Virus record (IMG/VR): IMGVR_UViG_3300008110_010000
Coordinates: 8,199-72,198 of that record
Origin: a virus
Length of the DNA stretch: 64,000 bases
Reading direction: 5' to 3' (one strand)
The notes below the pieces were generated by a model. The model had not been told where the DNA came from and searched no databases. It worked only from the letters and a program-made list of their open reading frames with translations. Shown piece after piece: positions 7,873 through 64,000 of the stretch. Position 1 is the first letter of the stretch. The number at the start of each line of letters is the position of its first letter. The translations under genes were made by a program, and so were the position numbers.

Positions 7873-7878
7873 TAATAT

Positions 7879-8307: not shown

Positions 8308-8469
8308 AGTAAAGTAATATCTAGTGGTTATAAATAAATGGGTCTCTTTTTCTTAGTTCCTCCAGTTTTTTCTTAAATCTTTTTTTCCTTTTATAGTTGT
8401 CTATACTTTTCTTTATCCAACTGAAAAGAATCAATCCCCTTAAGAACACAAAGAATTTTCTAAAGTGCT

Positions 8470-21262: not shown

Positions 21263-21263
21263 G

Positions 21264-21917
21264 TTAAATTATTTTGGCGCTAGGCGCTATTTTATTGAAT
21301 TCGTTGATCGAATGGCTAGAGTATTCTGGATCTTCAAATATAATTCCATGATTTCCGTTCCCACTTTTATCGAATGTTTTAAATTTTGAATTTCTTTCAA
21401 AATCAAAAAACGAGTACAGCTTTTTTGATTTCTCGTCAAAGGAATCGACGATTTCATCGAAAACTGCAATTTTATAAATATCCCCTTTGAACCAGCATTC
21501 ATAAGATCCACTGTATGGATTTATAGATCCTATAAAAATATTCTTGTCTGAATAAGATTCAATTGGACCGGTTTCTTTTTCACCTTTTAAAATTCCATCG
21601 ATGTATATTTTAACAGAATCTGAAACTGTCACCATGACTTCCATTCTTTTATGTATATCATCAACAGGTATCCAGATATCGTTATATTGATAGGGTTTAG
21701 TGTACCAAGAGAATTTAACACCATTTGGTTTCTGTAAAAATATTCCCATATGGTATCCTATCCTTCCTACAATCAACGACTCATCCTCTGCAAACTCAGA
21801 GAGTTGAAAATCCCCATAAAGAGAAAAATTCCCCTCCAGATTTTCAAAATTCTTTGTGTTCGTATTATTTTTAGAATTGTTTGGGATGTAATATGCTTTC
21901 TTTTCGAATCTCATCAA
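21264..21917 (-). CDS. hypothetical protein
   Basis: 217-aa ORF with no motif recognised. Confidence 0.3.
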   Translation of the reverse strand: MMRFEKKAYYIPNNSKNNTNTKNFENLEGNFSLYGDFQLSEFAEDESLIVGRIGYHMGIFLQKPNGVKFSWYTKPYQYNDIWIPVDDIHKRMEVMVTVSDSVKIYIDGILKGEKETGPIESYSDKNIFIGSINPYSGSYECWFKGDIYKIAVFDEIVDSFDEKSKKLYSFFDFERNSKFKTFDKSGNGNHGIIFEDPEYSSHSINEFNKIAPSAKII

Positions 21918-33603: not shown

Positions 33604-33985
33604 GGGGGTGTATTTGGCACTTGACAGACATTGGTAGTTCTTTGAGATGATGCAGGCCGAGTTAGTATTGGAAACTCGTTAATCACCTATGCAAACAATA
33701 AACGACGTAGAATTATCTACAATGACCTTCGAAGACGCTATGTCTTTCGTTGGTGCTGATTACGCAATAGCTGCCTAATCCCTCCCGCACACATCGTGGG
33801 GCTTAAAATAGAATGTGAACCCAGGTGGAATATGACTGAACCCGAAATCGAGTCATCTGAATTTGGTAGTTTAATCAGCCAACTATAAACTACATATTTT
33901 GTTTGTAAAGAAAAACAAGCTAAGCCTGTGAATGAGTTTCTTTTAACAGATGGACTGGACACCGGTTCGATTCCGGTCACCTCCA
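33604..33985 (+). ncRNA. ssrA: tmRNA (SsrA-like)
   Basis: 5' GGGGGTG pairs with 3' CACCTCC through a G3:U70 wobble, followed by discriminator A. The tRNA-like T-arm is GGTTCGATTCCGG. An internal tag frame ends ...GADYAIAA-TAA (33764-33778), like bacterial ...YALAA tags. The 3' CCA is not encoded. Confidence 0.7.
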
Positions 33986-34001
33986 CAAAAATTAATTTAA
34001 T

Positions 34002-36667: not shown

Positions 36668-37315
36668 ATGGCAAATGGAGTATACAAAATTACAGAAGAA
36701 TTTGAAAAATCACTCGAAAGCTATACAGGAGCTCCACATGTTGTAACTTTAGACAATCAGAGTAACGGACTTTTTCTTTCCCTATATTATGAAAATTACG
36801 TTAAAAAGAGCATAGAAAAAGGAAGTATAAAAATTCCAAGTCGAACTTATCCTTCAGTTCCTTGCGAGATTATTCATGCTGGCCTTAAAGTAGAGTTTGA
36901 GCATGTGAAAGGTAAGACGATTAAAGGTGCATACCAACTAAAAGGGAGCAAGGTTTGGGATTCTGCATTGTGTTTTACCTATAATATGTATAAGAAAAAT
37001 ACCCATATGTGCGTTTCTTTTACTGGACCATTTAAGCATTTTAAGTTGTCTAAAGGTGGAGCAATATTAACAGATGATCATGAAGCATATCTTTGGTTTA
37101 AAAGAGCTAGATATAGTGGCAGAAGAGAATGTTCTTATCATGACGATCACTTTGATATGCTGGGATGGAATTTTTATATGATGCCAGAATTAGCAGCAAG
37201 GGGTTTACTCATGATGGGACAATTTTATGATCCTACAACGGGAAAACCTAAAAACAATCCAGATCTGGAACTACCATATCCAGATTTATCAAAATTTGAT
37301 ATTTATAAAAAATGA
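36668..37315 (+). CDS. hypothetical protein
   Basis: 215-aa ORF with no motif recognised. Confidence 0.3.
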   Translation: MANGVYKITEEFEKSLESYTGAPHVVTLDNQSNGLFLSLYYENYVKKSIEKGSIKIPSRTYPSVPCEIIHAGLKVEFEHVKGKTIKGAYQLKGSKVWDSALCFTYNMYKKNTHMCVSFTGPFKHFKLSKGGAILTDDHEAYLWFKRARYSGRRECSYHDDHFDMLGWNFYMMPELAARGLLMMGQFYDPTTGKPKNNPDLELPYPDLSKFDIYKK

Positions 37316-45900: not shown

Positions 45901-47580
45901 ACCTCAGGAAACTCTGGTTCTTCAGGTACTTCAGGTACTTCAGGTAGTTCTGGTTCAACTGGTACTTCAGGTAGTTCTGGTTCTTCTGGAACCTCTGGTT
46001 CTTCTGGTTCAACTGGTACTTCAGGTACTTCAGGTACTTCCGGTAGTTCTGGTTCAACTGGTACTTCAGGTAGTTCTGGTTCTTCTGGAACCTCAGGAAA
46101 CTCTGGATCTTCTGGAACCTCTGGAGCATCAGGATCTTCTGGAACCTCAGGAAACTCTGGTTCTTCTGGAACCTCTGGAGCATCAGGTAGTTCTGGTTCT
46201 TCTGGAACCTCTGGAGCATCAGGATCTTCTGGAACCTCAGGAAACTCTGGATCTTCTGGAACCTCAGGAAACTCTGGATCTTCTGGAACCTCTGGAGCAT
46301 CAGGATCTTCTGGAACCTCAGGAAACTCTGGATCTTCTGGAACCTCTGGAGCATCAGGATCTTCTGGAACCTCTGGAGCATCGGGAGCTAATGGATCTTC
46401 TGGAACCTCTGGAGCATCAGGATCTTCTGGAACCTCTGGAGCATCAGGAGCTAATGGATCTTCTGGAACCTCTGGAGCATCAGGAGCTAATGGATCTTCT
46501 GGAACCTCAGGAAACTCTGGTTCTTCTGGAACCTCTGGAGCATCAGGAGCTAATGGATCTTCTGGAACCTCAGGATCTTCTGGAACCCGAGGTTCCTCAG
46601 GAACTTCAGGAGCTTCCGGTGGAAACGGAACATCCGGAACTTCAGGAGCTTCCGGGGGAAGCGGAACATCCGGAACTTCGGGAGCTTCTAGTTCAGCAAT
46701 ATCTAGTAATAACATCGACAACTATGTTGTTACCATGACTGGAAACAATTCCACGCCTTTCCAAGGGGAGCCTAACTTAACATTCGATAATACGAGACTT
46801 TTTGTAACTGGGAAAGTAAGGGTTTATCAAAATCCATTAAGCATAAGTTCAGGAAGTCTTTCTTGGCCTTTAAGATCTGGAGCAAATGCAACAGTTACTT
46901 TAAATCAAAATGTAACTACGTTTACACTTAGCGAATTTGAAGCTGGAGATACTGGGGTATTAATAGTAAAACAAGATGCTACTGGAGGTAGAACAATGGT
47001 ACTTCCCTCTAGTTCACAAGTAGTTGGAGGAGGATCTTATACCCCAACATCCGCTGCAAACTCACAAGACGTTCTTGGAGTTTACTACGACGGAACAACA
47101 TATTTCTGGACCATTGGGCTCGCTAGTGTTACAGGTAACTTACTTACAATAAACAATAATGCAGATCACAGAATATTGACTGCAACTGGTAGTGCTACTT
47201 CGATAGACGGAGAAACAGGATTGACTTATAACAGCAGTACATTAGCAGTAACTGGAGCAATCACAGCAACAGGAGATATCACTGCTTATTCATCTTCGGA
47301 TGAAAGATTAAAGGATAATATTTCGGTTATTCAGGATGCTTTGGAAAAGGTCTCTAGCATAAGAGGAGTGGAATTTGATTGGAACGACAAGGCTCATGAA
47401 GTTAATAGAGGTCACGATCTTGGAGTAATTGCTCAAGAGCTGATTAAAGTTCTTCCTGATGCAGTTAAAGAAAGAGAAGATGGATATTATGGGGTAAGAT
47501 ATGACAGAATTATACCTCTTCTCATAGAGGCTATAAAAGACTTAAGAAAAGAAATAGAAGAACTTAAAAGAGAAAAATAA
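42949..47580 (+). CDS. collagen-like (G-S/T-S/T repeat) fibre protein with Cys-rich insert and C-terminal intramolecular-chaperone (peptidase S74) domain; putative tail fibre
   Basis: Three long Gly-X-Y blocks (GTSGSSGTSGNSG...) where X and Y are almost only Ser/Thr/Asn/Ala. A Cys-rich non-repeat segment (CECPHSYTITAP...CDGCCDGYAY...) interrupts them. The C-terminal SSSDERLKDNISVIQDALEKV...GVEFDW matches the S-D-x-R-L-K-x-N-I autoproteolytic chaperone motif of phage tail fibres/endosialidases. Confidence 0.7.
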   Translation: MANYRILGQETVNNSVSPGPTLVTLYTVPQNASILINAITGYNEGFNSGYLTVAVKRNGDEDYSPDQIVINTPLAPGASIQISPQFSPVGLTAGDVILLVGNYSPAPTTVAVTLFGEDGASSGGSGNAGTSGTSGNSGGSSTSGSNGTSGTSGTNGSTGTGGTSGTSGMNGSIGTNGTSGTSGETFGTSGTSGAAGAPGAAGSSGTSGVSGASGSSGTSGVSGASGSSGTSGNSGSSGTSGISGASGSSGTSGNSGSSGTSGNSGTSGTSGESGSAGTSGSSGTSGNSGSSGTSGNSGSSGTSGNSGTSGTSGESGSSGTSGFSGSSGTSGNSGSSGTSGSSGEPGSAGTSGSSGTSGTSGNSGSSGTSGSSGTSGSSGTSGADGTSGSSGTSGNPGSSGTSGTSGNSGSSGTSGSAGTSGLSGISAGQIYYFNQSQSSDISPYKVLSVYPSGAAEQTVPMVLTGGQLNVLVSQFLTPELGFAVIPPGTQRFHLHFLKQQFNDDIDGYVTIELANSSGVGYGTIIQSNKALIGWVSVSQSYELLVDIVLPSVYINTTDRMIVKVYVDNNEATVRNLTWYTEGAQNYSYVITSVGAIVASSGTSGSSGTSGSSGTSGSGGSSGTSGSSGSEGTSGSSGTSGSSGTSGEDGTSGSSGTSGSSGTSGEDGTSGSGGSSGTSGSSGSEGTSGSSGTSGTSGEDGTSGSSGTSGTSGEDGTSGSSGTSGTSGVCECPHSYTITAPTDITCYSLTNDGDPDNVNSTNYLDCNGNPAVIYNKIFLTPATYFCAQTGSVTTDSGLTVISVPDDPGSCDGCCDGYAYSYTDETDTIISGIIYDGESLTFCAIPGSVVWSHTIVDNGHCVGSSGTSGSSGSNGTSGSSGTSGSSGSSGTSGTDGSSGSTGTSGSSGSSGSSGTSGTDGSSGSTGTSGSSGSSGTSGTDGSSGTSGNSGSSGTSGSAGTSGNEGPPGSSGTSGIDGTNGSTGSSGTSGNSGSSGTSGTSGSSGSTGTSGSSGSSGTSGSSGSTGTSGTSGTSGSSGSTGTSGSSGSSGTSGNSGSSGTSGASGSSGTSGNSGSSGTSGASGSSGSSGTSGASGSSGTSGNSGSSGTSGNSGSSGTSGASGSSGTSGNSGSSGTSGASGSSGTSGASGANGSSGTSGASGSSGTSGASGANGSSGTSGASGANGSSGTSGNSGSSGTSGASGANGSSGTSGSSGTRGSSGTSGASGGNGTSGTSGASGGSGTSGTSGASSSAISSNNIDNYVVTMTGNNSTPFQGEPNLTFDNTRLFVTGKVRVYQNPLSISSGSLSWPLRSGANATVTLNQNVTTFTLSEFEAGDTGVLIVKQDATGGRTMVLPSSSQVVGGGSYTPTSAANSQDVLGVYYDGTTYFWTIGLASVTGNLLTINNNADHRILTATGSATSIDGETGLTYNSSTLAVTGAITATGDITAYSSSDERLKDNISVIQDALEKVSSIRGVEFDWNDKAHEVNRGHDLGVIAQELIKVLPDAVKEREDGYYGVRYDRIIPLLIEAIKDLRKEIEELKREK
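43309..46690 (+). repeat. coding tandem repeats (9-nt GGN-based collagen-like units with higher-order ~54-66 nt repeats)
   Basis: Blocks at ~43309-44210, 44764-45124 and 45541-46690. They create many spurious overlapping ORFs on both strands. Confidence 0.8.
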
Positions 47581-48860: not shown

Positions 48861-48890
48861 AGGGTTCTTTGACATTGTGGAAAATAACGG

Positions 48891-48975
48891 AGGCTTGGCA
48901 GAGCGGTCGAATGCGGCAGTCTTGAAAACTGCTTTACGGGTAACTGTAACCGGGGTTCGAATCCCTGAGCCTCCG
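48891..48975 (+). tRNA. tRNA-Ser(TGA)
   Basis: Acceptor GGAGGCT/AGCCTCC, anticodon stem GCAGT/ACTGC with loop CTTGAAA, long variable arm, T-loop TTCGAAT. Confidence 0.75.
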
Positions 48976-48980
48976 CAATT

Positions 48981-49053
48981 GCCTCCTTAGCTCAGCTGGT
49001 AGAGCGACGCACTTGTAATGCGTAGGTCATTGGTTCGATCCCGATAGGAGGCT
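48981..49053 (+). tRNA. tRNA-Thr(TGT)
   Basis: Acceptor GCCTCCT/AGGAGGC, D-arm GCTCAGCTGGTAGAGC, anticodon loop CTTGTAA, T-loop TTCGATC. Confidence 0.8.
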
Positions 49054-49124
49054 CGATACTAACGTAAAACTTGTACACTAACATAATCCTTGTTAGCGTA
49101 CAAAAAGTTCGTTAGCAGTCAAAT

Positions 49125-49211
49125 AGAGAGGTGTCCGAGAGGCTGATGGAGCACGCTTGGAAAGCGTGTTTACGAGCGATCGTAACAAGGGTTCGAATCC
49201 CTTTCTCTCTG
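49125..49211 (+). tRNA. tRNA-Ser(GGA)
   Basis: Acceptor AGAGAGG/TCTCTCT, anticodon stem CACGC/GCGTG with loop TTGGAAA, long variable arm, T-loop TTCGAAT. Confidence 0.7.
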
Positions 49212-49212
49212 C

Positions 49213-49324
49213 ACATGCCGGTGTGGCGGAATGATGACTTGGCCAGTCATAGACGTCCCTGATCTAGAGTGGGGGTGTAACCGAAAAGGACACCGTGAAG
49301 GTAAACAACCCTTCCACCGGCACC
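49213..49324 (+). ncRNA. non-canonical tRNA-like element (~112 nt)
   Basis: A perfect 7-bp terminal helix GCCGGTG...CACCGGC is followed by A-CC. It contains a perfect 5-bp hairpin ATGAC-TTGGCCA-GTCAT with anticodon-like loop (GGC). The D- and T-regions do not fit a standard cloverleaf and the T-loop-like loop has 8 nt. Confidence 0.3.
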
Positions 49325-49328
49325 TTTT

Positions 49329-49414
49329 GCCTGGGTGTTGGAATAGGTAGACAAGACAGACTTAAAATCTGTTGGACTGCAAAGTCCGTGCGGGTTCGAT
49401 TCCCGCCCCAGGTA
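49329..49414 (+). tRNA. tRNA-Leu(TAA)
   Basis: Acceptor GCCTGGG/CCCAGGT (G1:U72), anticodon stem ACAGA/TCTGT with loop CTTAAAA, long variable arm with GGACT/AGTCC hairpin, T-loop TTCGATT. Confidence 0.75.
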
Positions 49415-49511
49415 CAAACCAAAAACAGCGTCGAGCCACATTTTGCGTCGTTCTTGGTCTAGATCTTCTCAACGGGAGAGGTGGCCGCGACCCCGAGGAG
49501 ATCACCAAATT

Positions 49512-49585
<74 letters not shown>

Positions 49586-49594
49586 CATTAAAAT

Positions 49595-49668
49595 GTTGGA
49601 TGTAGCTCAGTTGGCAGAGCACTAGCTTGTGGCGCTAGATGTCGCCGGTTCGATCCCGGTCGTTCAAC
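49595..49668 (+). tRNA. tRNA-His(GTG) with encoded G-1
   Basis: An extra 5' G pairs with discriminator C. Anticodon stem CTAGC/GCTAG with loop TTGTGGC, T-loop TTCGATC. Confidence 0.75.
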
Positions 49669-49674
49669 CATTAT

Positions 49675-49751
49675 CGAGTAGTTCGGGAGTCAGGTTACCC
49701 GGCTTGGTTTGGGACCAAGACAACTCGCAAGTTCGAATCTTGCCTACTCGA
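49675..49751 (+). tRNA. tRNA-Pro(TGG)
   Basis: Acceptor CGAGTAG/CTACTCG (perfect), anticodon stem CTTGG/CCAAG with loop TTTGGGA, T-arm GCAAG-TTCGAAT-CTTGC. Confidence 0.8.
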
Positions 49752-49757
49752 CAAAAA

Positions 49758-49848
49758 GGAGAGGTGCCTGAGTGGCCGAAAGGGCCGGTTTGCTAAACCG
49801 TTGTACGGACTTAAATCTGTACCGAGGGTTCGAATCCCTCCCTCTCCG
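49758..49848 (+). tRNA. tRNA-Ser(GCT)
   Basis: Acceptor GGAGAGG/CCTCTCC, anticodon loop TTGCTAA, long variable hairpin GTACGG...CTGTAC, T-arm GAGGG-TTCGAAT-CCCTC. Confidence 0.7.
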
Positions 49849-49908
49849 CGTAGATTCTAAGCTAATTTTCTTTCCAGTAGGATATATAAATGGACATAAA
49901 AATAGGAA

Positions 49909-54293: not shown

Positions 54294-55088
54294 ATGAGAA
54301 AAATACAGTCATTTTCACAATTTGTCAGCGAAGCTCAATTTGCTATAAGTGATCCCTCAACAGCAGGAGAGAAATTAGCAGGTGTCCTAGTAGCTAATAA
54401 AGACGCAAAAGAAGAACCAAAGGGAAGTAATAAAGGACCGGAAGTAGACAAATATCTACAATCAGTAGGATTAGGCCCAGGTTTACCCTGGTGTGCAGCC
54501 TTTGTTTATTATATTTTTGACCAGCTTTCCAAGCAACTTGGAACTTCAAACCCACTTCCTAAGACTGGAGGGGTAATGAATCACTGGAATAAATCAGACC
54601 AGGATGCAAAGATTACCATAGATCAAGCTAGGATCAATCCAAATTTAGTTAGGCCAGGACAAGTATTTATAATGACCAGACCAGGTAAAGGATTGGGACA
54701 TACTGGTATAATAGTATCAGTAGATCCACAAAAGAAAACCATGACAACTATGGAGGGTAACACCAACGATCAGCTTTCTGGTGAAGGTAACAGAGTCGGA
54801 ACTAATGTGAGAAAATTGGATCAAGGAACCCTAGTAGGATTCTTGGATTATTTTAAAACAAGTAGAACACCAGAATTTGAAGCAGATCTTTCTAAAGCAA
54901 TAACAGGTCAAGCCACAGCATTACCTCCTCTTTCAGCTGACGATGTTCCAGGAGACGATGTAGTAGGTCCGGTTAAAACCGATGCTGGAGGACAATTAAT
55001 GGCTCAAGCTCTTGGTAATGTTGCAGCGGCAACTGCAAATATGGAAGCTCCTAGAACACCAGAAGAAGTTCCGGTGGAACTTAGATAA
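54294..55088 (+). CDS. CHAP-domain peptidase/amidase (peptidoglycan hydrolase-like)
   Basis: LPWCAAFVYY (catalytic Cys) ... GLGHTGIIVSV (His) ... MEGNTND has the order and spacing of CHAP domains. Confidence 0.6.
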   Translation: MRKIQSFSQFVSEAQFAISDPSTAGEKLAGVLVANKDAKEEPKGSNKGPEVDKYLQSVGLGPGLPWCAAFVYYIFDQLSKQLGTSNPLPKTGGVMNHWNKSDQDAKITIDQARINPNLVRPGQVFIMTRPGKGLGHTGIIVSVDPQKKTMTTMEGNTNDQLSGEGNRVGTNVRKLDQGTLVGFLDYFKTSRTPEFEADLSKAITGQATALPPLSADDVPGDDVVGPVKTDAGGQLMAQALGNVAAATANMEAPRTPEEVPVELR

Positions 55089-55621: not shown

Positions 55622-55693
55622 GGCGATTTGGCCGAGTGGTTCAGGCAGGGGTCTGCAAAACCTCTTACTCCAGTTCGACTCTGGAAATCGCCT
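55622..55693 (+). tRNA. tRNA-Cys(GCA)
   Basis: Acceptor GGCGATT/AATCGCC (perfect), anticodon stem GGGGT/ACCTC with loop CTGCAAA, T-arm TCCAG-TTCGACT-CTGGA. Confidence 0.8.
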
Positions 55694-55701
55694 CAGAAAT
55701 T

Positions 55702-55773
55702 GGGGATATAGCTCAGCGGTAGAGCAAGCGACTGTTAATCGCTAGGTCATAGGTTCGAATCCTTTTATCCCCG
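55702..55773 (+). tRNA. tRNA-Asn(GTT)
   Basis: Acceptor GGGGATA/TATCCCC, D-arm GCTCAGCGGTAGAGC, anticodon stem AGCGA/TCGCT with loop CTGTTAA, T-loop TTCGAAT. Confidence 0.75.
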
Positions 55774-55803
55774 CAGATGGTTCTTTGACATATTGGAAAA
55801 CTT

Positions 55804-55875
55804 GGCCCCGTCGTCTAATGGTTAGGACGCCTCCCTTTCACGGAGGAAATTTCGGTTCGACTCCGTGCGGGGCTA
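55804..55875 (+). tRNA. tRNA-Glu(TTC)
   Basis: GGCCCCG-TC-GTCTAATGGTTAGGAC, anticodon stem CCTCC/GGAGG with loop CTTTCAC (same loop as E. coli tRNA-Glu). T-stem somewhat irregular. Confidence 0.65.
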
Positions 55876-55883
55876 CATTCGAG

Positions 55884-55956
55884 GATCTCTTAGCTCAATC
55901 GGTAGAGCACTACACTTTTAATGTAGGGGTTTTGGGTTCGAGTCCCAAAGGGATCA
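55884..55956 (+). tRNA. tRNA-Lys(TTT)
   Basis: Acceptor GATCTCT/AGGGATC, D-arm GCTCAATCGGTAGAGC, anticodon stem CTACA/TGTAG with loop CTTTTAA, T-arm TTGGG-TTCGAGT-CCCAA. Confidence 0.75.
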
Positions 55957-56045
55957 CATAATACCTTATTATAAGCTCATAGCTGAACTCTAATTTTTAA
56001 TCAGATTTAGATACTATAAGCTAAAATAATCTCTTTAAACAAAGC

Positions 56046-56127
56046 GGGAGCATCGCATAGCGGCAATTGCAAGGGACTGTAAATCCCTCCTCTTACGAGT
56101 TCGGTGGTTCGAGTCCACCTGCTCCCA
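56046..56127 (+). tRNA. tRNA-Tyr(GTA)
   Basis: Acceptor GGGAGCA/TGCTCCC (perfect), anticodon stem AGGGA/TCCCT with loop CTGTAAA, long variable arm (bacterial type), T-arm GGTGG-TTCGAGT-CCACC. Confidence 0.8.
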
Positions 56128-56212
56128 CAAATCAGAAGCGGTAAGAAGCGTTACTTCATCAAAATTGGATTTGACAACAACACACGCTGATTAAATATTC
56201 TCTGATTTTATT

Positions 56213-56282
56213 GCCCGATGGTGTAATGGCAGCACAAGTGGTTTTGGTCCACTTAGTCTAGGTTCGAATCCTAGTCGGGCAT
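56213..56282 (+). tRNA. tRNA-Gln(TTG)
   Basis: Acceptor TGCCCGA/TCGGGCA (perfect), anticodon stem AGTGG/CCACT with loop TTTTGGT, T-arm CTAGG-TTCGAAT-CCTAG. Confidence 0.75.
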
Positions 56283-56287
56283 CATTA

Positions 56288-56944
56288 TTACCAATAATAG
56301 GATTCCCATTTAAATTTTTCAATCGGAGTAAATACTGGTTCTTTTGTTCCGTATGATGCACGCTTCTCCACATCATCTTTAGGATTTTGAAGAATTTGGA
56401 GTGCATAATCTACAATTCTGGGTCCATGAGGTAAAACGTGAGTAACTTTATATCGGGATGCAAATTCTTTCACCCTGTTTATTATTTCAGGTAATATCTC
56501 ATAGTATTTTTCACTGTATCTTGATCCCCATGTTCTTTCAATTTTAAGATAATTTTCTGAATCCCATGATGCTCCGGGGGCGTAAACCTTTATAGGGGAG
56601 AATTGATAAACAGTATCTATATACATAGGATGATAATAGGAGATAAGACACTCAAGTTCTTCCAGCTTATTTCCTATGAACCCCTTTATATTTTTTTCCG
56701 CATGTTCTGCTCTTTTGATCTCGTCATTATTTAAGGTGAATCCCCCCCTCCACCCAAGATAACATGCATCAATTAATTTGGACTGATTTCTCTCGCTGAA
56801 AAGTTCCTCTATCTTTTCCTCGTTATAAATTGGCCCAGTTATTACTGTTCTATTATGGAGGATTTTTTTAAATTCCATCCCGAATAGATCTCTTCCTTTC
56901 TGAGAGATACCATAAAAACTCTCGTAAATTGTTAGATGTCTCAC
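56288..56944 (-). CDS. hypothetical protein
   Basis: 218-aa ORF with no motif recognised. Confidence 0.35.
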   Translation of the reverse strand: MRHLTIYESFYGISQKGRDLFGMEFKKILHNRTVITGPIYNEEKIEELFSERNQSKLIDACYLGWRGGFTLNNDEIKRAEHAEKNIKGFIGNKLEELECLISYYHPMYIDTVYQFSPIKVYAPGASWDSENYLKIERTWGSRYSEKYYEILPEIINRVKEFASRYKVTHVLPHGPRIVDYALQILQNPKDDVEKRASYGTKEPVFTPIEKFKWESYYW

Positions 56945-57017
56945 AAATCTATATATTCCGCATTTTTTATTAATAATCCTCTTTATTAAATTTGGGATAG
57001 ATAGGAAACACTTTTAT

Positions 57018-57512
57018 ATGAAAACGAAAAAAATATTAGTGCTAATTTTTCTTTTTTTAATTCCAGCTTGGGAATTTCAAAAAGAACCAGATTTTAAATT
57101 CTTCAAAATAATTCCGGAGGAGGTAGAAAAAATTTCTCATCAAAATCTTTATAATGAAATTATTGAAAGCGGAATAAAATTCCCCGAAATAGCTTTCGTA
57201 CAGGCAATTATAGAATCCGGGAATTTTACATCCGGGCTTTTTAAAAAGCATAACAATCTTTTTGGAATGAGATTTCCAGGAAGGAGAGAAACAACTTCTA
57301 TAGGTAGAAACAAAAGGGGATATGCAAGATACGAAGATTGGGACGATAGCGTAAAGGATTATTTTCATTGGCAATCCTTTTTTATGAGAAGGAGAGACAT
57401 CAACACCAAAGAAGAGTATCTAGATCTTTTAGATGATGTGTATGCTGAAGATAAATCTTATGTTACTGTTATTAGAAAGAATATAAAGCAATACAAACAC
57501 ATTTTTGATTAA
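57018..57512 (+). CDS. secreted glucosaminidase-domain protein (FlgJ/muramidase-like peptidoglycan hydrolase)
   Basis: N-terminal signal/TM segment, then AFVQAIIESGNFTSGLFKKHNNLFGMRF ... YARYEDWDDSVKDY, which resembles the glucosaminidase (AQAALESGWG ... NNLFGIK) domain. Confidence 0.55.
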   Translation: MKTKKILVLIFLFLIPAWEFQKEPDFKFFKIIPEEVEKISHQNLYNEIIESGIKFPEIAFVQAIIESGNFTSGLFKKHNNLFGMRFPGRRETTSIGRNKRGYARYEDWDDSVKDYFHWQSFFMRRRDINTKEEYLDLLDDVYAEDKSYVTVIRKNIKQYKHIFD

Positions 57513-57513
57513 T

Positions 57514-57587
57514 GGACCGGTAGTTCAGCTGGTTAGAATGCCGCCCTGTCACGGCGGAGGTCGCGGGTTCGAGTCCCGTCCGGTCCG
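57514..57587 (+). tRNA. tRNA-Asp(GTC)
   Basis: Acceptor GGACCGG/CCGGTCC (perfect), anticodon stem CCGCC/GGCGG with loop CTGTCAC, T-loop TTCGAGT. Confidence 0.8.
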
Positions 57588-57592
57588 CAAAT

Positions 57593-57632
57593 GGTCAAAA
57601 TTTGAGTAGTAAAACGGTCAAAATTTGAGTAG
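57593..57632. repeat. 17-bp direct repeat x2 (GGTCAAAATTTGAGTAG) between tRNA genes
   Basis: Copies at 57593-57609 and 57616-57632, separated by TAAAAC. Confidence 0.7.
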
Positions 57633-57685
57633 CAAATAATTACTAGGAACTTTTAAAATTTTTTAGCATATAATTTCGGATACTA

Positions 57686-57758
57686 GCAGCGGTGGTGTTC
57701 AATGGTAGCACGCCAGCCTTCCAAGCTGGACGAGAGGGTTCGAATCCCTTTCGCTGCT
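57686..57758 (+). tRNA. tRNA-Gly(TCC)
   Basis: Acceptor GCAGCGG/TCGCTGC, anticodon stem CCAGC/GCTGG with loop CTTCCAA, T-arm GAGGG-TTCGAAT-CCCTT. Confidence 0.75.
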
Positions 57759-57766
57759 CAATATAA

Positions 57767-57805
57767 TAAACCAGATTCTGTCTAATAATCACATCTGGTT
57801 TATTT
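57767..57805. terminator. hairpin terminator-like element between the two tRNA-Gly genes
   Basis: AAACCAGAT-(16 nt loop)-ATCTGGTTT followed by ATTT. Related to the ACCCAGAT terminator family. Confidence 0.35.
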
Positions 57806-57825
57806 AGTAAAAACAGGTTTAGTAA

Positions 57826-57898
<73 letters not shown>

Positions 57899-57933
57899 CA
57901 AAATATAAAAACAAGTATTTTTATAAATAGAAC

Positions 57934-59022
57934 ATGACTGATTATCTAATAGTTGGAGCTGGACTTTACGGATCTATTGTTGCAAACGAATTAAAAAAAT
58001 CAGGTAAGTCAGTTATTGTAATAGATCAGAGAGATCATATTGGAGGAAACTGTTTCACACAAAGCATAGATGGTATTAATGTTCATAAATATGGGCCCCA
58101 TATATTTCACACAGATAATCTAAGTGTTTGGAATTACATTCAAAAATTCTGCGATTTTAATCATTTTAGCTACAGACCAAGGGTTAACTATAAAGGAAAA
58201 ATATATTCCTTTCCGATCAACTTACTAACTTTTCAACAAGTATATGGTATCAGTTCTCCTGCTGAAGTCCAGAAATTACTGGAAGAGATAAGGATTTTTC
58301 ACGAGGATCCAAAAAACATGGAAGAATGGATGCTAGATCAAATTGGACCAGATCTTTATAAAATTTTTATAGAAGGGTATACTACAAAACAGTGGGGAAG
58401 ATCTCCGAAGGAACTTCCTGCTTCCATAGTAAAAAGAATTCCAATACGTCTAACTTTTGATGATAATTACTATAATCATCCATACCAAGGAATCCCAGTT
58501 GGCGGGTACACACAGATTTTTGAAAAACTTCTTAATGGTATAGACGTCAGATTAAATCACAATTATTTTGATAATAAAGAATTTTTTGACTCTCTAGCAA
58601 AGAATGTAATTTACACCGGTCCGATAGACAGATTCTATAATTATGAATTTGGAAAATTAGAATATAGATCCTTAGATTTTAAAACAGAACTTTTAGATAT
58701 TCCGGATTTTCAGGGGGTAGCTGGGGTTAATTATACAGATTTAGATGTACCATATACAAGAATAGTAGAACACAAACATTTTGAATTTGGAAAACAAAAC
58801 CACACGATCATCACAAAAGAATATTCAAAATCGTTAGGTGATCCCTACTATCCAATAAATGACGGAAGAAATCAAAAGATTTATGAAGTGTATAGATCCA
58901 AGTCCGTGGAAAATCCGAAGTTTAATTTTGGCGGAAGATTAGCAGAGTATAAGTATTATGACATGCATCAAATAATCTCGCAAGCCCTTGATTTCTCTTC
59001 GAAAATTAGAATCAAAAATTAA
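57934..59022 (+). CDS. glf: UDP-galactopyranose mutase
   Basis: DYLIVGAGLYGSIVANEL (FAD Rossmann), VIVIDQRDHIGGNCFT and GPHIFHT are the characteristic UGM N-terminal motifs. Length 362 aa is consistent with Glf. Confidence 0.75.
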   Translation: MTDYLIVGAGLYGSIVANELKKSGKSVIVIDQRDHIGGNCFTQSIDGINVHKYGPHIFHTDNLSVWNYIQKFCDFNHFSYRPRVNYKGKIYSFPINLLTFQQVYGISSPAEVQKLLEEIRIFHEDPKNMEEWMLDQIGPDLYKIFIEGYTTKQWGRSPKELPASIVKRIPIRLTFDDNYYNHPYQGIPVGGYTQIFEKLLNGIDVRLNHNYFDNKEFFDSLAKNVIYTGPIDRFYNYEFGKLEYRSLDFKTELLDIPDFQGVAGVNYTDLDVPYTRIVEHKHFEFGKQNHTIITKEYSKSLGDPYYPINDGRNQKIYEVYRSKSVENPKFNFGGRLAEYKYYDMHQIISQALDFSSKIRIKN

Positions 59023-59624
59023 TTTTTGTGATCCTTGTCTTCGCAAAGCATTTCTAATTGTTCCCAGCTAAATTTTGGCTTTTCATTTAAAAAAACAAAG
59101 CATCTCCACTTTTTTTGAGACTCAAAGTAGATATGCTTTTGTAGGTGGGAGGGAATGGCAGCATTTGTCTCAACTCTTTTAACGGGATTGTCAAAAAATA
59201 TTTTAATTAATACAGTGATATTTTCTTTATCGTCCCATTTTCTGATCTGCTCCTCCAATAATCTCCATTCACCCCTATTCAGATACTGATTTTGCATAAT
59301 GCAATTAAGGTAAGAAAATGTTTGCTTTAGGTTTTCCATGTTGTCAGAAAATGTAGCAGCAGGTGCTCCATGTCCTTTATCATACACATTTTTTACATAA
59401 TCATCAGCATCCGAAGTTTTGACTGATTTTTCTGTGTAAAAATCCATTGATCCCCTATTAACATTAGTAGGTCTGTTGGTTGATCTATATTTGATCCATA
59501 AAGGCTGCTCTAATTTCTGCGAATATAAAACTTCAAACACTTGATTTTTAATTCTTACTGTGTCTTGGGCTTTTAATACTACTGATAGTGATAAAAATAG
59601 AAGTACTGATAAAATTCTTTTCAT
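59019..59624 (-). CDS. secreted DNA/RNA non-specific endonuclease (Serratia-nuclease family-like)
   Basis: Signal peptide MKRILSVLLFLSLSVVLKAQD. DKGHGAPAA resembles the D-R-G-H active-site motif, followed by N ... NQ ... GEW ... LEEQ segments in Endonuclease_NS order. Confidence 0.5.
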   Translation of the reverse strand: MKRILSVLLFLSLSVVLKAQDTVRIKNQVFEVLYSQKLEQPLWIKYRSTNRPTNVNRGSMDFYTEKSVKTSDADDYVKNVYDKGHGAPAATFSDNMENLKQTFSYLNCIMQNQYLNRGEWRLLEEQIRKWDDKENITVLIKIFFDNPVKRVETNAAIPSHLQKHIYFESQKKWRCFVFLNEKPKFSWEQLEMLCEDKDHKN

Positions 59625-59626
59625 GT

Positions 59627-60445
59627 TTATTTTTTTCTTTTTAACTCTTTCATCGGAACATTTACATGTTTACCGAACGGCATTTGTTTACTGCTTATCA
59701 TTGCCCAAATAATTTTTTTGTGCCATTTTGGTTTTTCAGGGTCGTGAGCACCACCGTCAGTAAAGTATATGAGGCAGGCAAGATCTTTTCCTTTTTTTAG
59801 AATGTTATCTTCTGCCCATTTTATAGGCGGGTCAAATCCAAGTTCGTTACCACCCGTAGATCCCTGTTTAGAAGGATCTAATTTTTGAGTTGGGTATTTT
59901 AAATAATCTATACCATCTATGTCATCACTGCAATAGATTATCCAAATTTCTTCAGGAGAAAAAGCTTTAAGTATACTTCTAGCTTCTGTCAAGAAAGTAT
60001 TATATTCTTCGGATCCTATACTTCCGGAGGTATCAACTGCAATTACAACTGATCCAAATCCCTCTTCCTTTCCTCTTAGACCAGGAAGGTAAATGCCTTG
60101 ACTAGCATATCTTCTGTTTGGTATTTTATACATTGTAGGTTCCTCGTTGGCAGTCGAAACGTATCTTTGTAATATTTTTCTCCAATTAATCTGTGGATTA
60201 GCTAATCTTTCAACGAATTTTCTAAGAGCCCCTGATCCTCCTCCACTGCCCATTCCTCTGTTTGCAGCATTGTTTACTATTTCTTTTACCTTGTCTTTTA
60301 CAGATTTTCTTTCCTTCTGTATTGGTTTTTCTTTCTGTGGATTCCAATCCCCCTTCTCTTGATCTGGCTTATCTGGATCCCCATCTTTCCATTCGCTTTC
60401 TTTTTCGTCAGAAATGATTTTGTATTTTCCTTTTTGTACGTACAT
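59627..60445 (-). CDS. VWA-like domain protein (DUF2201-type)
   Basis: VVIAVDTSGSIGSEEY resembles a MIDAS-like D-x-S-x-S start of a VWA fold. Lies in an operon with the AAA+ ATPase. Confidence 0.45.
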   Translation of the reverse strand: MYVQKGKYKIISDEKESEWKDGDPDKPDQEKGDWNPQKEKPIQKERKSVKDKVKEIVNNAANRGMGSGGGSGALRKFVERLANPQINWRKILQRYVSTANEEPTMYKIPNRRYASQGIYLPGLRGKEEGFGSVVIAVDTSGSIGSEEYNTFLTEARSILKAFSPEEIWIIYCSDDIDGIDYLKYPTQKLDPSKQGSTGGNELGFDPPIKWAEDNILKKGKDLACLIYFTDGGAHDPEKPKWHKKIIWAMISSKQMPFGKHVNVPMKELKRKK

Positions 60446-60446
60446 A

Positions 60447-61418
60447 TTAAACTTCTATATCTCCGTTTTTATAAACCTTCTTTATAGTTTTAATAGCTCC
60501 GCTATCTAATCTTACTTTTTGTCCGGTTTTAGGTAACTCCAATTCTCCGGATCCTCCCTCGGCATTTCCTGATCCTCCTTCACCTTCACCTTCTCCTTCA
60601 CCTTCACCTTCTCCCTCGCCTTCTCCTTCACCTTCTCCCTCGCCTTCTCCCTCGCCTTCTCCCTCGCCTTCTCCTTCGCCTTCTCCTTCGCCTTCTCCCT
60701 CGCCTTCTCCTTCGCCTTCTCCCTCGCCTTCTCCCTCGCCTTCTCCCTCGCCTTCTCCCTCTCCTTCACCTTCTCCCGGTTGGTTATCATCAATTTCGGG
60801 GGTTTCCTCTTGGGGTTCTTCCGCATCCTTAGTGATTGAATCTTTCTCCCCAAGAACAGTTTCAGTAACTTGATCATGATCTATAGCTCCCGGCTCAAAA
60901 ACGTCACAATATGATTTAAAGAAAGGGTCTATTTTTAATCTACCAGATTTTATCTGGTCATAGATTTCTTCAGCAGAGAGATCCTGGAATTTTGAAGATT
61001 GCATGGTAGTAGGAAGCTTTGATTTTCCAATACCATCTAAAAAAGCTTCAGCTGCCATGTCACATGCTGCGTTCCAGATATTAGTATCTTTACTTCCGAT
61101 CCTATCATAGTGATCTAAAGCAAGATGAGAAATTCCTTGGCTAATAGCCCAGATTATTTCGTCTTCAGAAAGATCTATAACATTTTTAGGATTAAATATG
61201 AATATGGTGCCATCAGTTGAAAAATATTCGCATTCATCAGAAACTCCTACTGGGATTTCAGCAAGAACCCTCCCGAATAATCCCTCTTTCATTAAGATTT
61301 TTGAAACCGATCTTCTAACTCGCATGACTGCTCTTTCATAGTCCTGCTCACTAATTCCGTAACTTGATGAATTTTCTAACAGAATACCATATTCTGCAAA
61401 GTTTCTAATTTTTCTCAT
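60447..61418 (-). CDS. putative metallopeptidase-like (DUF2201_N-type) protein with long poly(Gly-Glu) tract
   Basis: N-terminal half has a His/Asp-rich segment (ISQGISHLALDHYDRIG). C-terminal tract of about 45 uninterrupted GE dipeptides, then a short tail. Confidence 0.4.
   Translation of the reverse strand: MRKIRNFAEYGILLENSSSYGISEQDYERAVMRVRRSVSKILMKEGLFGRVLAEIPVGVSDECEYFSTDGTIFIFNPKNVIDLSEDEIIWAISQGISHLALDHYDRIGSKDTNIWNAACDMAAEAFLDGIGKSKLPTTMQSSKFQDLSAEEIYDQIKSGRLKIDPFFKSYCDVFEPGAIDHDQVTETVLGEKDSITKDAEEPQEETPEIDDNQPGEGEGEGEGEGEGEGEGEGEGEGEGEGEGEGEGEGEGEGEGEGEGEGEGEGEGEGEGEGEGEGEGEGGSGNAEGGSGELELPKTGQKVRLDSGAIKTIKKVYKNGDIEV
60570..60780. repeat. coding hexanucleotide/12-mer tandem repeat (GE)n
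   Basis: ccttctccctcg / ccttcaccttct units repeated about 18 times. Generates a spurious opposite-strand KAREKA ORF. Confidence 0.8.
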
Positions 61419-61419
61419 T

Positions 61420-62988
61420 CTAGATTTCTTTCATTAAAGATCTATATCTGTTCACAAATGGTGTTACATATTGTTCTAGAGAGGTATCACCCAAATAGTT
61501 TTTGATTTCCGGATGAGTTCTTTTTGCCATGTTTAATGCACTCATAGCTAATTCTCCTGTGTTTAAATCTGTTAGATATGTTATAAAATTAGTGAATTCA
61601 TCTTTTGTTAACTGTTGTCCGTTTTTGTATTTGGATGCTAAGTACATGATGCTATAGCCTTTTCTCAGATCAACTCTTCCAGTATTAGAACTCATTGGAA
61701 GTTTTACTGTTTCATCGCTAGGATCCGTAAATATCTTTTCTATTCTATTAACTGGCCAAACCTTCATCGTTTCAAGGAAATCTGTAATAATTGATGATAC
61801 TTTTTTACCAATGTGTTTATCGAAGATAAGTCTGGTAGTTTCTGCTGAGATATCCCCTCCTTTTTCTTTTTGTGCGTCTCTCCTTTCTTTATATTCTCTA
61901 GCAGCATATTCCCATGCTCTTGGTGTAACACCCATTGTAGTTTCAATATCTCCTCCAACTAATCCGCTAGGTAAAACATAGAAATAATCCTGCATAAGTT
62001 CTACAAATGCTATAACCTCGTCGCTTAGATCTGCTTCTTTTCTTCCCCTTGCCCATTTTGTCCAAGATACAGGATCGGAAATAAAATTGACTTGAGCAAA
62101 TCTATTGGCTAGTGCGAAGCTCATTGGTTTAATCATAGATCCTGGTTCATCCTCCGGTCTATTTGCTGCAGCTAGAATTAGCCATTTGCTAGGAATTTTA
62201 TAATTAGCACTTGTGATTTCTCTGTCCAAAACAACTTTGAGCATTGCCGCTTGAACCGATGGGTGTGCTCTGTTAATCTCGTCTAAGAATATAATTCCAC
62301 CCTTCCCCTCGATTTTTTCTATAGTGCCATCTTCCCTCTTGATTTCTCGGTCTCCGTTATCTAAAGGCCAAATCATTGGTAAATAATTTACTGATCTTTT
62401 TACGTCGTAATCTACATCCTTTTCAGCACCAGGTAATCCGGCAACATCCGTCGGTTCCATTAAACTTAGAATTACCTCGATAACAGGAACACCCATTCCC
62501 TTAGTCCCAAAAGATTTTACCACGGAGGTTTTACCAATTCCTGGTGCTCCCCAAATTAATAATGGTCTACCAGTTTCTGGTTTCTGGAAGTGATATGATA
62601 GTTCCCCCGTTAACTGATCAGCATCAACGTCAGTTATTTGAGAGTCTTGGGTCTTTTGAGCAGTTTTCCAAGATGGATCATCAGATTCTTTAATTGAAGA
62701 AATCGATCCGGATCTAAAGTTATACGAACTGCCAGCATCACCCTCTGGAAGGTAAACCTTTACAACACTCCGTGCTTTTGCTATATTACCATTTGCGTCT
62801 TTGAATTGTTCGAACCTTCCAGTCTCCGGATTGTATTTTTTGTCTCTAACTGGAATTTCCCCTTCCTTTTCTGCACGGATTAAATTCATTAGCCAGTTTC
62901 CTGCTTTTTTTAGTAATTCTGCTCCCCTGGAAAATATCCCAGCTTCATTAAGTCTATTAAACTCTTGAAATCCTTTGATTCTTTTCAT
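61420..62988 (-). CDS. MoxR-like AAA+ ATPase
   Basis: LLIWGAPGIGKTSVV Walker A, GIIFLDEINRA Walker B and ILAAANRPE sensor region in MoxR/RavA order. C-terminal extension. Confidence 0.6.
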   Translation of the reverse strand: MKRIKGFQEFNRLNEAGIFSRGAELLKKAGNWLMNLIRAEKEGEIPVRDKKYNPETGRFEQFKDANGNIAKARSVVKVYLPEGDAGSSYNFRSGSISSIKESDDPSWKTAQKTQDSQITDVDADQLTGELSYHFQKPETGRPLLIWGAPGIGKTSVVKSFGTKGMGVPVIEVILSLMEPTDVAGLPGAEKDVDYDVKRSVNYLPMIWPLDNGDREIKREDGTIEKIEGKGGIIFLDEINRAHPSVQAAMLKVVLDREITSANYKIPSKWLILAAANRPEDEPGSMIKPMSFALANRFAQVNFISDPVSWTKWARGRKEADLSDEVIAFVELMQDYFYVLPSGLVGGDIETTMGVTPRAWEYAAREYKERRDAQKEKGGDISAETTRLIFDKHIGKKVSSIITDFLETMKVWPVNRIEKIFTDPSDETVKLPMSSNTGRVDLRKGYSIMYLASKYKNGQQLTKDEFTNFITYLTDLNTGELAMSALNMAKRTHPEIKNYLGDTSLEQYVTPFVNRYRSLMKEI

Positions 62989-63002
62989 TTTTTTATTTTT
63001 TT

Positions 63003-63854
63003 TTAATCCTCGAAAAATCCTGCTGATTTGAGATCGCCAAGATTGTCTATAGTTTGTGCTACGTTTTCTGTTCCTTTTTCTTTTGCAAGATTTGAAATCA
63101 TATCAAAAACACCTTCTGAGAAATTTAATGCAACAAAGTCTCCGGGCTTTTGATTAAAGAGATCTAATAATTCCTGAGTTACATCAAATTCCGGTTCCTG
63201 CATCTCTTTGGGATTTGCAAATTTTAAACCGATGTCCTCGGAAGATGCCGCAAAAAGTTTTTTAATTGTTTCTATCTGGAAATCCATTCCTCCATAAAAT
63301 GAGAATTGTAAAGCCTTGTTAGTTTCGAATCCGTTTGCAATTTTTTTTCTGATGTTCTTTACTACTTCTTCGTCCCATCCTTGTTTTTTCATTAGAATTT
63401 CAAGTATCAATGCGTTACCAGATTTAAAATAAAAAGCAACATTTTGACCAAATCCAGGGATCTCAGAAAAAATTGAAGCCTTTCCTGTTAGTGATCCCGA
63501 CACCATATCAGCTGGAGAATTCATTACCGTATATCCATCCTGATTTGCGCTTCTACTATATGAAATACCTCCCTTAACTTCTGGAGTTTCTGATTTAAAA
63601 TGCGGGCTATTAATAAATTGGGAGGTTTCCACAGTACATGGAACCAATACATATCCAGCTACCCCGCCAGTTCCTAAAAGTTCCGAAGGAAATTTGGTAT
63701 CGGAGGTTGATAGATTTTTATCCACTGATTTGAAGTTTTTATCAACAGGAACAAATATAAAAGCGGAATGCGTTCCTATAAATCCTTCGTTGATAAACCC
63801 AGTAAAGTCTAAGATTCTTTTCATTTTTTTATATATCAAAAAAATAAAGCCCAC
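63003..63854 (-). CDS. hypothetical protein
   Basis: 283-aa ORF upstream of the ATPase operon. Confidence 0.3.
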   Translation of the reverse strand: MGFIFLIYKKMKRILDFTGFINEGFIGTHSAFIFVPVDKNFKSVDKNLSTSDTKFPSELLGTGGVAGYVLVPCTVETSQFINSPHFKSETPEVKGGISYSRSANQDGYTVMNSPADMVSGSLTGKASIFSEIPGFGQNVAFYFKSGNALILEILMKKQGWDEEVVKNIRKKIANGFETNKALQFSFYGGMDFQIETIKKLFAASSEDIGLKFANPKEMQEPEFDVTQELLDLFNQKPGDFVALNFSEGVFDMISNLAKEKGTENVAQTIDNLGDLKSAGFFED

Positions 63855-64000
63855 ATCTGAAATATTTTTGGAAATTTCTCATAAAATGATCATATAAACA
63901 CGATAATGAAGACTTTCGGGAAATTTAGCGCTGCAATTGATTGGACAAAATCTAAAATGTCTGATTATTGCTATGAGGTTCACACAGAAAAGTGGCAAGG

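Follow-up and report, generated by a model that had tools for sequence, protein, structure and literature searches.

Three adjacent genes on the minus strand, encoding a MoxR-type ATPase and two proteins that follow it, raise the question of what kind of machine a phage builds from them and where that machine would act. The genes lie in a 64,000-nt stretch of virus DNA (IMG/VR record IMGVR_UViG_3300008110_010000, positions 8,199-72,198), which is referred to here as the window. Identical copies of the window proteins were found on freshwater metagenome contigs of up to ~150-220 kb, and the source is therefore a large uncultured phage. A sequence-only reading of the window had described a co-oriented tight three-gene unit, and this was confirmed: the order is ATPase, peptidase-like/GE protein (open reading frame 2, ORF2) and VWA protein (ORF3), with spacers of 1 nt each (TAG-A-ATG and TAA-T-ATG). 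The same reading saw a triad of three distinct components. This gave way to a two-component pair in which the second gene is split. The explanation that we favour, with a probability of about 0.7 for the whole, combines a known family pair, a split partner, a linker that works as a spacer and a direction of the machine towards the prohead.

The 522-aa ATPase scored well above the Pfam cut-offs for AAA_5 (1.8e-10, 41.4 bits, cut-off 22) and AAA_3 (1.7e-09, 38.1 bits, cut-off 27), matched AAA too, and corresponded to phrog_1297 in PHROG (2.2e-51). Its Walker A (GAPGIGKT), Walker B (IIFLDE) and sensor-1 (LAAANR) motifs, already noticed in the sequence-only reading, are intact, and a gene for a vWA protein with a metal-ion-dependent adhesion site (MIDAS) adjoins it; together these features place the ATPase in the MoxR group. 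The only match among solved structures found by sequence was weak (2r44, E 0.0016). Searches for the AAA_5, VWA and DUF2201/DUF2201_N domains, which that reading had proposed as a check along with a search for the module in other phages, were all positive. By tblastn, the ATPase found the N4 gp24-like ATPases in 568 phage records, which included Schitoviridae and jumbo phages such as Munch and 7t3. Module loci were confirmed in 532 IMG/VR stretches, and the motif and split classes were scored on 79 IMG/VR loci. The MoxR/vWA pair is among the commoner conserved gene pairs of large and N4-like phages; the module itself is of an already known kind and largely ordinary once placed in its family. 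In the group 2.2 jumbo phages it has been described as a MoxR-vWA chaperone/co-chaperone pair with an N-terminal metallopeptidase, and the authors suggested that it takes part in virion assembly (Iyer et al. 2021, PMC7824862). The gene after the ATPase in N4-like and jumbo phages encodes a fused metallopeptidase-vWA protein.

The two genes after the ATPase in the window are two halves of one such family protein, because they cover complementary parts of one profile. ORF2 matched DUF2201_N at profile positions 17-156 (6e-14, 52.7 bits) and phrog_1314 at positions 11-162, while ORF3 matched DUF2201_N at positions 169-271 (43.7 bits; cut-off for both matches, 23.2), the VWA-like domain DUF2201 (2.2e-11, 44.4 bits, cut-off 26.4) and phrog_1314 at positions 138-393. 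The VWA-like protein of the sequence-only reading was borne out by this DUF2201 match and by a complete MIDAS. Most members of the family are made as one polypeptide, but ORF2 and ORF3 lie in different frames. An AlphaFold2 (AF2) model of ORF2 joined to ORF3, with the repeat of ORF2 shortened to six units and an alignment of 78 sequences, had a mean pLDDT (predicted local distance difference test) score of 79, with values >90 over the N-domain (residues ~20-190) and most of the vWA domain. This model aligned over its whole length with phage proteins of 380-450 aa that are made as one chain (E 1e-18 to 1e-11), and the structural matches included proteins of cyanophage S-TIM5, Pseudomonas phage Zuri, Klebsiella phage FBKp27, Bacillus phage PBS1 and a Ruegeria N4-like phage. 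The fused relative P0020 had no match by sequence among solved structures. It is nearly certain that the unit is a phage MoxR ATPase with a zincin/linker/vWA partner and that this partner is split.

The split was also found elsewhere. Among the 79 scored IMG/VR loci, the partner was fused in 58 and clearly split in 14. The close split relatives comprise N-halves (P0001-P0007, 62-67% identical to ORF2) and C-halves (P0009-P0025), and the split form reaches ~30% identity, with dozens of C-half clusters at 30-38%. The close fused relatives (P0020-P0032) are 466-470 aa long and 51-62% identical to ORF3; at least one of them, P0023, sits in a syntenic phage locus (L010). Each half carries an end of its own. 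The C-half, which holds the helical region and the MIDAS-vWA domain, starts with a short head, MYVQKGKYKII in the window, of which M1, G6 and Y8 are invariant in 32 aligned split C-halves, and the distant C-halves (30-38% identity clusters) begin M-x-[VI]-K-x-G-x-Y. In the N-half, 43 residues follow the repeat, and the last 29 of them form a conserved tail (LPKTGQKVRLDSGAIKTIKKVYKNGDIEV, then the stop; consensus ...LPxVGxxVxLxxGxxxxIKKVYxNGDIE[VI]-stop), which was kept in every type-A split relative seen, to ~30% identity. Distant N-halves show the same succession of zincin-like domain, low-complexity repeat and tail (L013, L014, L015, L033, L034, L037, L047 and L054, with a variant version of the tail in L034). 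A second split type was found in eight loci including L022, with another small tail (...GDVIRDTKxGxYGVVxSID...GEIxYDPIP...) and a C-half that starts MKAKIT. A programmed frameshift between ORF2 and ORF3 was ruled out by the spacers between the halves, which differ among phages (1, 3 and 9 nt).

Could a nonsense mutation, a frameshift or a misassembled repeat have broken one gene into these two, so that the module is decaying? Close relatives do have a single gene of 466-470 aa (P0020-P0032, L010), the repeat does cause assembly faults (L001, L108), and the HExxH motif of the zincin-like domain is lost. However, 130 nt separate the repeat from the stop/start junction downstream of it, this junction is identical in every assembly that reaches it, the split with its own tail and head is kept in dozens of protein clusters to 30% identity, the MIDAS and Walker motifs are intact, and the change to QGxxH is common to the whole clade, fused forms included. 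Decay is largely refuted by these observations and we regard it as very improbable. Judged from this conservation, the split is old and maintained and appears to be functional.

Duplicated or additional partner proteins were seen at some loci. In L009, two differing C-halves (7033-7896 and 7903-8718) follow a single N-half. A protein of L015 (5001-5870) is listed with them, and one paralogue class has a Cys-rich insert in the MIDAS loop (DTSCLICQDPNCSHGMSG) and therefore an altered DxSxS motif. L042 encodes an extra stand-alone DUF2201 vWA protein of 279 aa upstream of the ATPase (435-1274); this locus includes a fused partner as well, with a T4-type portal close by.

The sequence-only reading had called ORF2 a His/Asp-motif protein and putative metallopeptidase. 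The DUF2201_N match supports the family, but the motif is a degenerate HExxH: ORF2 has QGISHLALDH where, in an alignment and a motif table of 127 homologues, the canonical relatives have HExxHxxxxH, starting as HE(V/I)xH. HExxH is kept in 54 of the 58 fused IMG/VR relatives, in Munch, in the N4-like phages and in the split relatives L013 and L014, whereas Q/E-G-x-x-H is common to the window clade, split and fused members alike. The catalytic Glu and the first His of HExxH are missing in ORF2, and the domain is therefore regarded as a binding module; to judge by these residues, protease activity is unlikely in this phage. By contrast, the MIDAS of ORF3 has the full DxSxS...T...D series (DTSGS, STGGN and YFTDGG), which is near-invariant among the relatives. 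The natural split separates the zincin-like from the vWA domain, and the protease chemistry is dispensable in one clade.

The uninterrupted poly(GE) tract reported in the sequence-only reading exists, although with 33 units instead of ~45 and with the tail following it. Its DNA is an imperfect 6/12-nt minisatellite (codons GGA/GGC/GGT and GAA/GAG), and a 121-aa alternative-frame ORF at 60512-60877 (-) (KEKAREKA...; KEKAREKAREKA) was rejected as a by-product of it. The possibility of a repeat artefact, also named in that reading, turned out to touch the length and not the existence of the tract. Another 11 assemblies of this phage contain it too, next to an ORF3 protein that does not differ from that of the window (in L006, ORF3 was cut off). 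Nine assemblies read through the tract, with 14, 30, 49, 53, 59, 64, 67, 67 and 68 units, the two 67-unit alleles being different assemblies; one contig (L006) stops within the repeat after at least 50 units, and another assembly (L001) has an N gap there, which moves the called gene into an alternative frame of the repeat. The DNA differences across the length alleles amounted to 0-2 nt in the ATPase gene (six assemblies compared) and in ORF3 (five compared). The length in the window is unreliable: the first 27 units of the long alleles are joined there to their last 6, perhaps through collapse or deletion. L003, L006 and L105 have a clearly different synonymous-codon pattern in the tract, and in the two that were compared the ATPase gene differs by only 2 nt from that of the window. 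A codon pattern so different beside a near-identical ATPase gene points to a real and rapid turnover of the tract. L108 (1-470), a metagenome contig, is a chimera whose junction falls within the GE-coding repeat: the sequence fused there to the phage is high in GC and unrelated to it. The repeat therefore misleads short-read assemblers.

The tract occupies a linker position that is low in complexity throughout the family. Other split relatives have PGDE, PGEPGDE, GDKEGDKE, QPGEGEGQGG or TGDTGT repeats there, the P0020 group has a non-repetitive Ser/Asn/Glu/Lys linker, and the linker of phage Munch is of the GD/GQ type (GDGEGDGDGDGDGDD; GDGEGDGDGDGD and GQGQGQ runs). A fused homologue with canonical HEVLH, encoded by LR756500.1 (L098, a 462-kb uncultured phage; 5279-6754), has an uninterrupted (GQ)x31 linker. 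This run lies between two CxxC pairs (CPRCNGSG ... CPACNGTG) and resembles a zinc ribbon broken by a dipeptide repeat. In the related arrangement of the chelatase subunit ChlD, an 'acidic polyproline' linker precedes the vWA domain (PMC6604950). The AF2 model gave the GE tract pLDDT values <50, i.e. it is predicted to be disordered. Taken together, the tract looks like an exaggerated, unstable form of the family-wide linker. It is probably a flexible polyanionic spacer, in which presence and charge appear constrained but not length or sequence. Being under relaxed constraint, it can serve as an intrinsic strain marker, and it is a known pitfall when short reads are assembled.

Nucleic-acid mimicry, which had been suggested for the tract, would instead make (GE)n the functional core, a polyanionic decoy that sequesters DNA-binding host defence proteins. 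The extreme charge (-41 over the 90 residues 191-280 of ORF2) and the rapid turnover of length and sequence, typical of conflict-driven regions, would suit such a role, and a packaged decoy would be deliverable along with the DNA. However, the homologous linkers are chemically diverse, some with little or no charge ((GQ)n, TGDTGT), and in close relatives the linker is not even repetitive; a spacer fits these better. Known DNA mimics are folded proteins with patterned charge, which weakens the idea further. No homology to Ocr/ArdA-like DNA mimics was detected in Pfam, PHROG or PADLOC, and PADLOC gave no anti-defence signal, its generic AAA+ similarity being all that bears on the anti-defence device of the sequence-only reading. 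Nothing that we found supports mimicry, and we consider it improbable.

Where the machine acts is suggested by the N-termini. The ATPase, ORF2, the 273-aa protein encoded upstream of the ATPase and a CHAP-domain protein unlinked to the module all start with a leader of the form MKRIxxFxxF...[LIV]xE. The strict pattern (M-[KR]-[KR]-[ILV]-x-x-F-x-x-[FY]...[LIV]-x-E) was run over all fetched DNA (3623 ORF segments). It matched 72 segments, in 71 cases at the first Met, compared with 1 of 4933 internal Mets and 0 of 6881 shuffled N-termini. The matches were 29 ATPases, 21 N-halves or fused partners and 22 proteins of other families; the unrelated families that carry the leader include the ~270-aa upstream family, 201-aa and 306-335-aa proteins and the CHAP protein. 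Among the IMG/VR loci, 16 of the 19 long ATPases (492-535 aa) have the strict leader and the remaining three look similar, while the 14 short ATPases of leaderless loci all lack it (13 canonical HExxH loci and the QGIIH locus L020). It is also absent from the leaderless fused forms (P0020/L010) and their 400-aa ATPase. The leader-bearing loci are L008, L009, L013, L015, L018-L047 and L098; in the last, LR756500.1, the resemblance was judged by eye, in a leucine-rich repeat (LRR) protein that starts with the variant MKYIQTYKDFLLE. The ATPase leader is kept in L008, L009, L013 and L015, and the leaders are conserved in relatives to ~30% identity.

These leaders resemble the capsid-targeting sequence (CTS) of phage T4. 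In T4, residues 4 and 7 set capsid targeting, residues 8 and 10 cleavage, and the propeptides are 10-19 residues long (PMC9026906). Read from NC_000866, IPII and IPIII start MKTYQEFIAE/A and IPI starts MKTFKEFTSTTTPVSTITE/A. As a pattern match, the four window proteins agree with T4 at positions 4 and 7 and in the [L/I]xE end; the shared features are Met1, Lys/Arg2, a hydrophobic or aromatic residue at 4, Phe7 and [L/I/V]-x-Glu followed by a small residue. As in IPI, IPII and IPIII, a short N-terminal leader stands on otherwise unrelated proteins. The window leaders differ in that they are 13-19 residues long and have another aromatic residue, at position 10, and in that their putative cargo would be a large AAA+ machine instead of small basic proteins. 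T4-type portals (PF07230) lie within 5 kb of the module in two leader-bearing loci, L013 (3.6e-64), where the module directly follows the portal genes, and L042 (6.5e-61). Because the leaders resemble the T4 CTS and end in an [L/I]xE site, the machine would probably be directed to the prohead or virion and not be free in the cytoplasm. Taken by itself, prohead or virion targeting of the module is a tentative proposal, to which we give somewhat less than even odds. The assembly or ejection factor of the sequence-only reading is compatible with the leaders and with the proposal made for the jumbo phages.

The main rival is a maturation chaperone that works in the cytoplasm and is tied to the nucleotide-metabolism and nuclease genes nearby. 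It would supply an enzyme of the phage or the host with a metal or cofactor, or reactivate that enzyme, and the leaders would be only a shared assembly or stability element. Such a role is documented for MoxR-vWA pairs in chelatases and in RavA-ViaA, the module is flanked by NT5C, RNase H-like and Endonuclease_NS genes, the N4-like pair sits among early/middle genes such as RNAP2 and dCTP deaminase, and the fused forms of N4-like and jumbo phages have no leader. Against it, the leader also stands on the unrelated CHAP protein, and a similar one on the LRR protein, as would be expected of a general signal for sorting or processing; its form fits the T4 sequence at the mapped positions 4 and 7; and the L013 module comes directly after portal genes. 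On balance, a purely cytoplasmic role seems unlikely.

Several observations nevertheless weigh against the explanation that we favour, and most of them bear on its prohead part. No head genes were found among the proteins of the 64-kb window, and its NT5C, RNase H-like and Endonuclease_NS neighbours are nucleotide-metabolism and not structural genes. When T4 gp17-gp24 were compared with all fetched DNA, only gp20 (the portal) matched, and only in L013 and L042; gp21, the prohead protease, had no match in the fetched DNA of the window and its relatives. Residues 7-20 of ORF2 are helical in the AF2 model, and the leader could be a shared oligomerisation helix instead of a capsid-targeting signal. 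MKRI-type N-termini are in part favoured by AT-rich codon usage (the window has 35% G+C). Part of the variation in repeat length may be assembly collapse (L001, L006, L108). A joint fold of tail and head as one small beta domain was not confirmed: from the single sequence, the junction was predicted as a beta-meander with a pLDDT of 56-71 (41 overall), and the alignment-based model had values <55 there. Finally, the literature search returned no experiment that assigns a function to a phage MoxR/vWA pair, nor one for any member of this phage family.

In the favoured explanation, the ATPase ring would remodel a target protein complex with ATP, by analogy with ChlI/ChlD, NorQ/NorD and RavA/ViaA. 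The vWA/MIDAS domain would serve as an adaptor and grip the target or the ring, the zincin-like domain would offer a second binding surface, with protease activity in the relatives that keep HExxH, and the (GE)n tract would be a flexible, polyanionic and charge-repelling spacer between the parts. Each protein with a leader (the ATPase, the N-half, the 273-aa protein and one or more unrelated proteins) would be sent by it to the prohead core and trimmed; the C-half, which has no leader, would enter with the others, by way of the tail/head contact or of the ATPase. A bolder version, which we hold to be rather doubtful, is that a clade of uncultured aquatic phages has put a T4-like targeting and cleavage leader on the MoxR ATPase, the zincin half and unrelated proteins, so that the machine is loaded into the prohead. 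Trimmed by the prohead protease, it might act on the core from within, by remodelling or clearing it, or might leave with the DNA and enter the next host, and the hypervariable (GE)n might be a DNA-repelling spacer inside the DNA-filled head. Should the leader prove to be a capsid-targeting signal, the machine would belong in the prohead, and the leader would define a set of packaged proteins of uncultured phages that is predictable from sequence alone; this prediction is open to a direct test by virion proteomics.

The comparison with known systems shows which features set this clade apart. The window unit shares with the pair of the group 2.2 jumbo phages and Schitoviridae (N4 gp24-like) the families of both components (AAA_5/phrog_1297 and DUF2201_N plus DUF2201/phrog_1314), the position of the ATPase as first gene, the intact MIDAS and a low-complexity Gly/acidic linker at the same position. 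It differs in the split of the partner with a dedicated tail and head, in the degenerate HExxH (QGISH), in a length-polymorphic linker of 33 or more GE units and in an N-terminal extension of ~100 residues on the ATPase. This extension is absent from the closest fused-clade relative and, in an alignment with the L008, L009 and L010 ATPases, is specific to this clade; it was not matched in cultured phages by tblastn, and Pfam at E<=10 gave nothing meaningful for it or for the tail+head peptide. Munch and the N4-like phages are without the T4 CTS-like leader that the window ATPase and N-half carry. The Mg-chelatase pair ChlI/ChlD (BchI/BchD) and, more loosely, NorQ/NorD and Midasin resemble the unit in their possible working but not in family membership: the window has no chelatase H-like substrate subunit, its N-module is zincin-like and not AAA-like, and the setting is a phage. 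Another virus-encoded MoxR ATPase with a vWA partner is the p618/p892 pair of Acidianus two-tailed virus, in which p618 is a major virion component, binds the vWA protein and is assigned a chaperone role in virion morphogenesis (PMC4124505). ORF892 of that virus matched the AF2 model weakly by structure (E 0.065). The virus is archaeal, its proteins have no zincin-like domain, split or acidic repeat, and the sequence similarity is very remote. Four features are apparently new, as far as the literature and phage collections that were searched can show: a split form with three genes that is conserved, the loss of HExxH in a clade, a hypervariable linker of dipeptide repeats, and a CTS-like leader carried by an AAA+ machine as well as by unrelated proteins.

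The positions of the genes and motifs are given in Table 1. The 273-aa gene begins the run 14 nt upstream of the ATPase, and the Endonuclease_NS gene follows 2 nt after ORF3; the unit is therefore part of a co-oriented five-gene run. The 273-aa protein had no match in Pfam, PHROG or PADLOC. Its gene is kept at the same position in L001, L008, L009, L015, L018 and L019 and is probably a fourth member of the unit. The endonuclease is the last gene of the run in split and fused relatives alike (L008, L009, L010 and L015), and its N-terminus resembles a signal peptide (MKRILSVLLFLSLSVVLKAQD). A promoter and terminator scan of 58800-64000 gave nothing above the shuffled expectation, and blastn of the locus DNA against 50,697 phage genomes gave no match.

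Table 1. Positions of the module, its motifs and leaders, and its neighbours in the window.
Feature	Position	Strand	Description
Upstream 273-aa gene	63003-63824	-	Unknown family; leader-bearing
Leader of 273-aa protein	63786-63824	-	MKRILDFTGFINE, then GF; motif scan
ATPase gene	61420-62988	-	522 aa, MoxR-type AAA+
ATPase leader	62944-62988	-	MKRIKGFQEFNRLNE, then AG; motif scan
Walker A	62527-62550	-	GAPGIGKT, ATPase
Walker B	62278-62295	-	IIFLDE, ATPase
Sensor-1 region	62158-62175	-	LAAANR, ATPase
ORF2 (N-half)	60447-61418	-	323 aa: leader, zincin-like domain, (GE)33 linker, conserved tail
ORF2 leader	61374-61418	-	MRKIRNFAEYGILLE, then NS; motif scan
Degenerate zincin motif	61110-61139	-	QGISHLALDH
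(Gly-Glu)x33 tract	60579-60776	-	ORF2 aa 215-280
N-half tail	60450-60536	-	Conserved end of ORF2, then stop
ORF3 (C-half)	59627-60445	-	272 aa: second part of DUF2201_N and vWA/MIDAS domain
C-half head	60413-60445	-	MYVQKGKYKII
MIDAS DTSGS (DxSGS)	60020-60034	-	ORF3; column near-invariant in alignment
MIDAS STGGN	59846-59860	-	ORF3
MIDAS YFTDGG	59750-59767	-	ORF3
Endonuclease_NS gene	59019-59624	-	DNA/RNA non-specific endonuclease, E 4.3e-22
CHAP-domain protein	54294-55088	+	CHAP 3.1e-10; leader MRKIQSFSQFVSE, then AQ

Other genes of the window were noted in passing. A transfer-messenger RNA (tmRNA) gene lies at 33604-33986 (+), with a tag peptide that ends ...ADYAIAA, and 21 tRNA genes lie within 35650-57899 (+), mostly clustered at 48889-49849 and 55622-57899. 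At least five ORFs in 14546-23296 (-) and 37312-39495 (+) have matches of the radical S-adenosylmethionine (radical-SAM) type; this run adjoins glycosyltransferase, methyltransferase and aminotransferase genes, which suggests a large modification or biosynthesis island. A 624-aa protein (5408-7282, -) matched Hint/intein-splicing and AXH domains over its C-terminal 150 residues. Two 2-oxoglutarate-Fe(II) oxygenases, a SET-domain protein, a UDP-galactopyranose mutase (GLF, 3.1e-76) and a 1543-aa collagen-like tail-fibre protein were listed jointly for 2138-3228 (-), 4770-5243 (-), 57934-59022 (+) and 42949-47580 (+).

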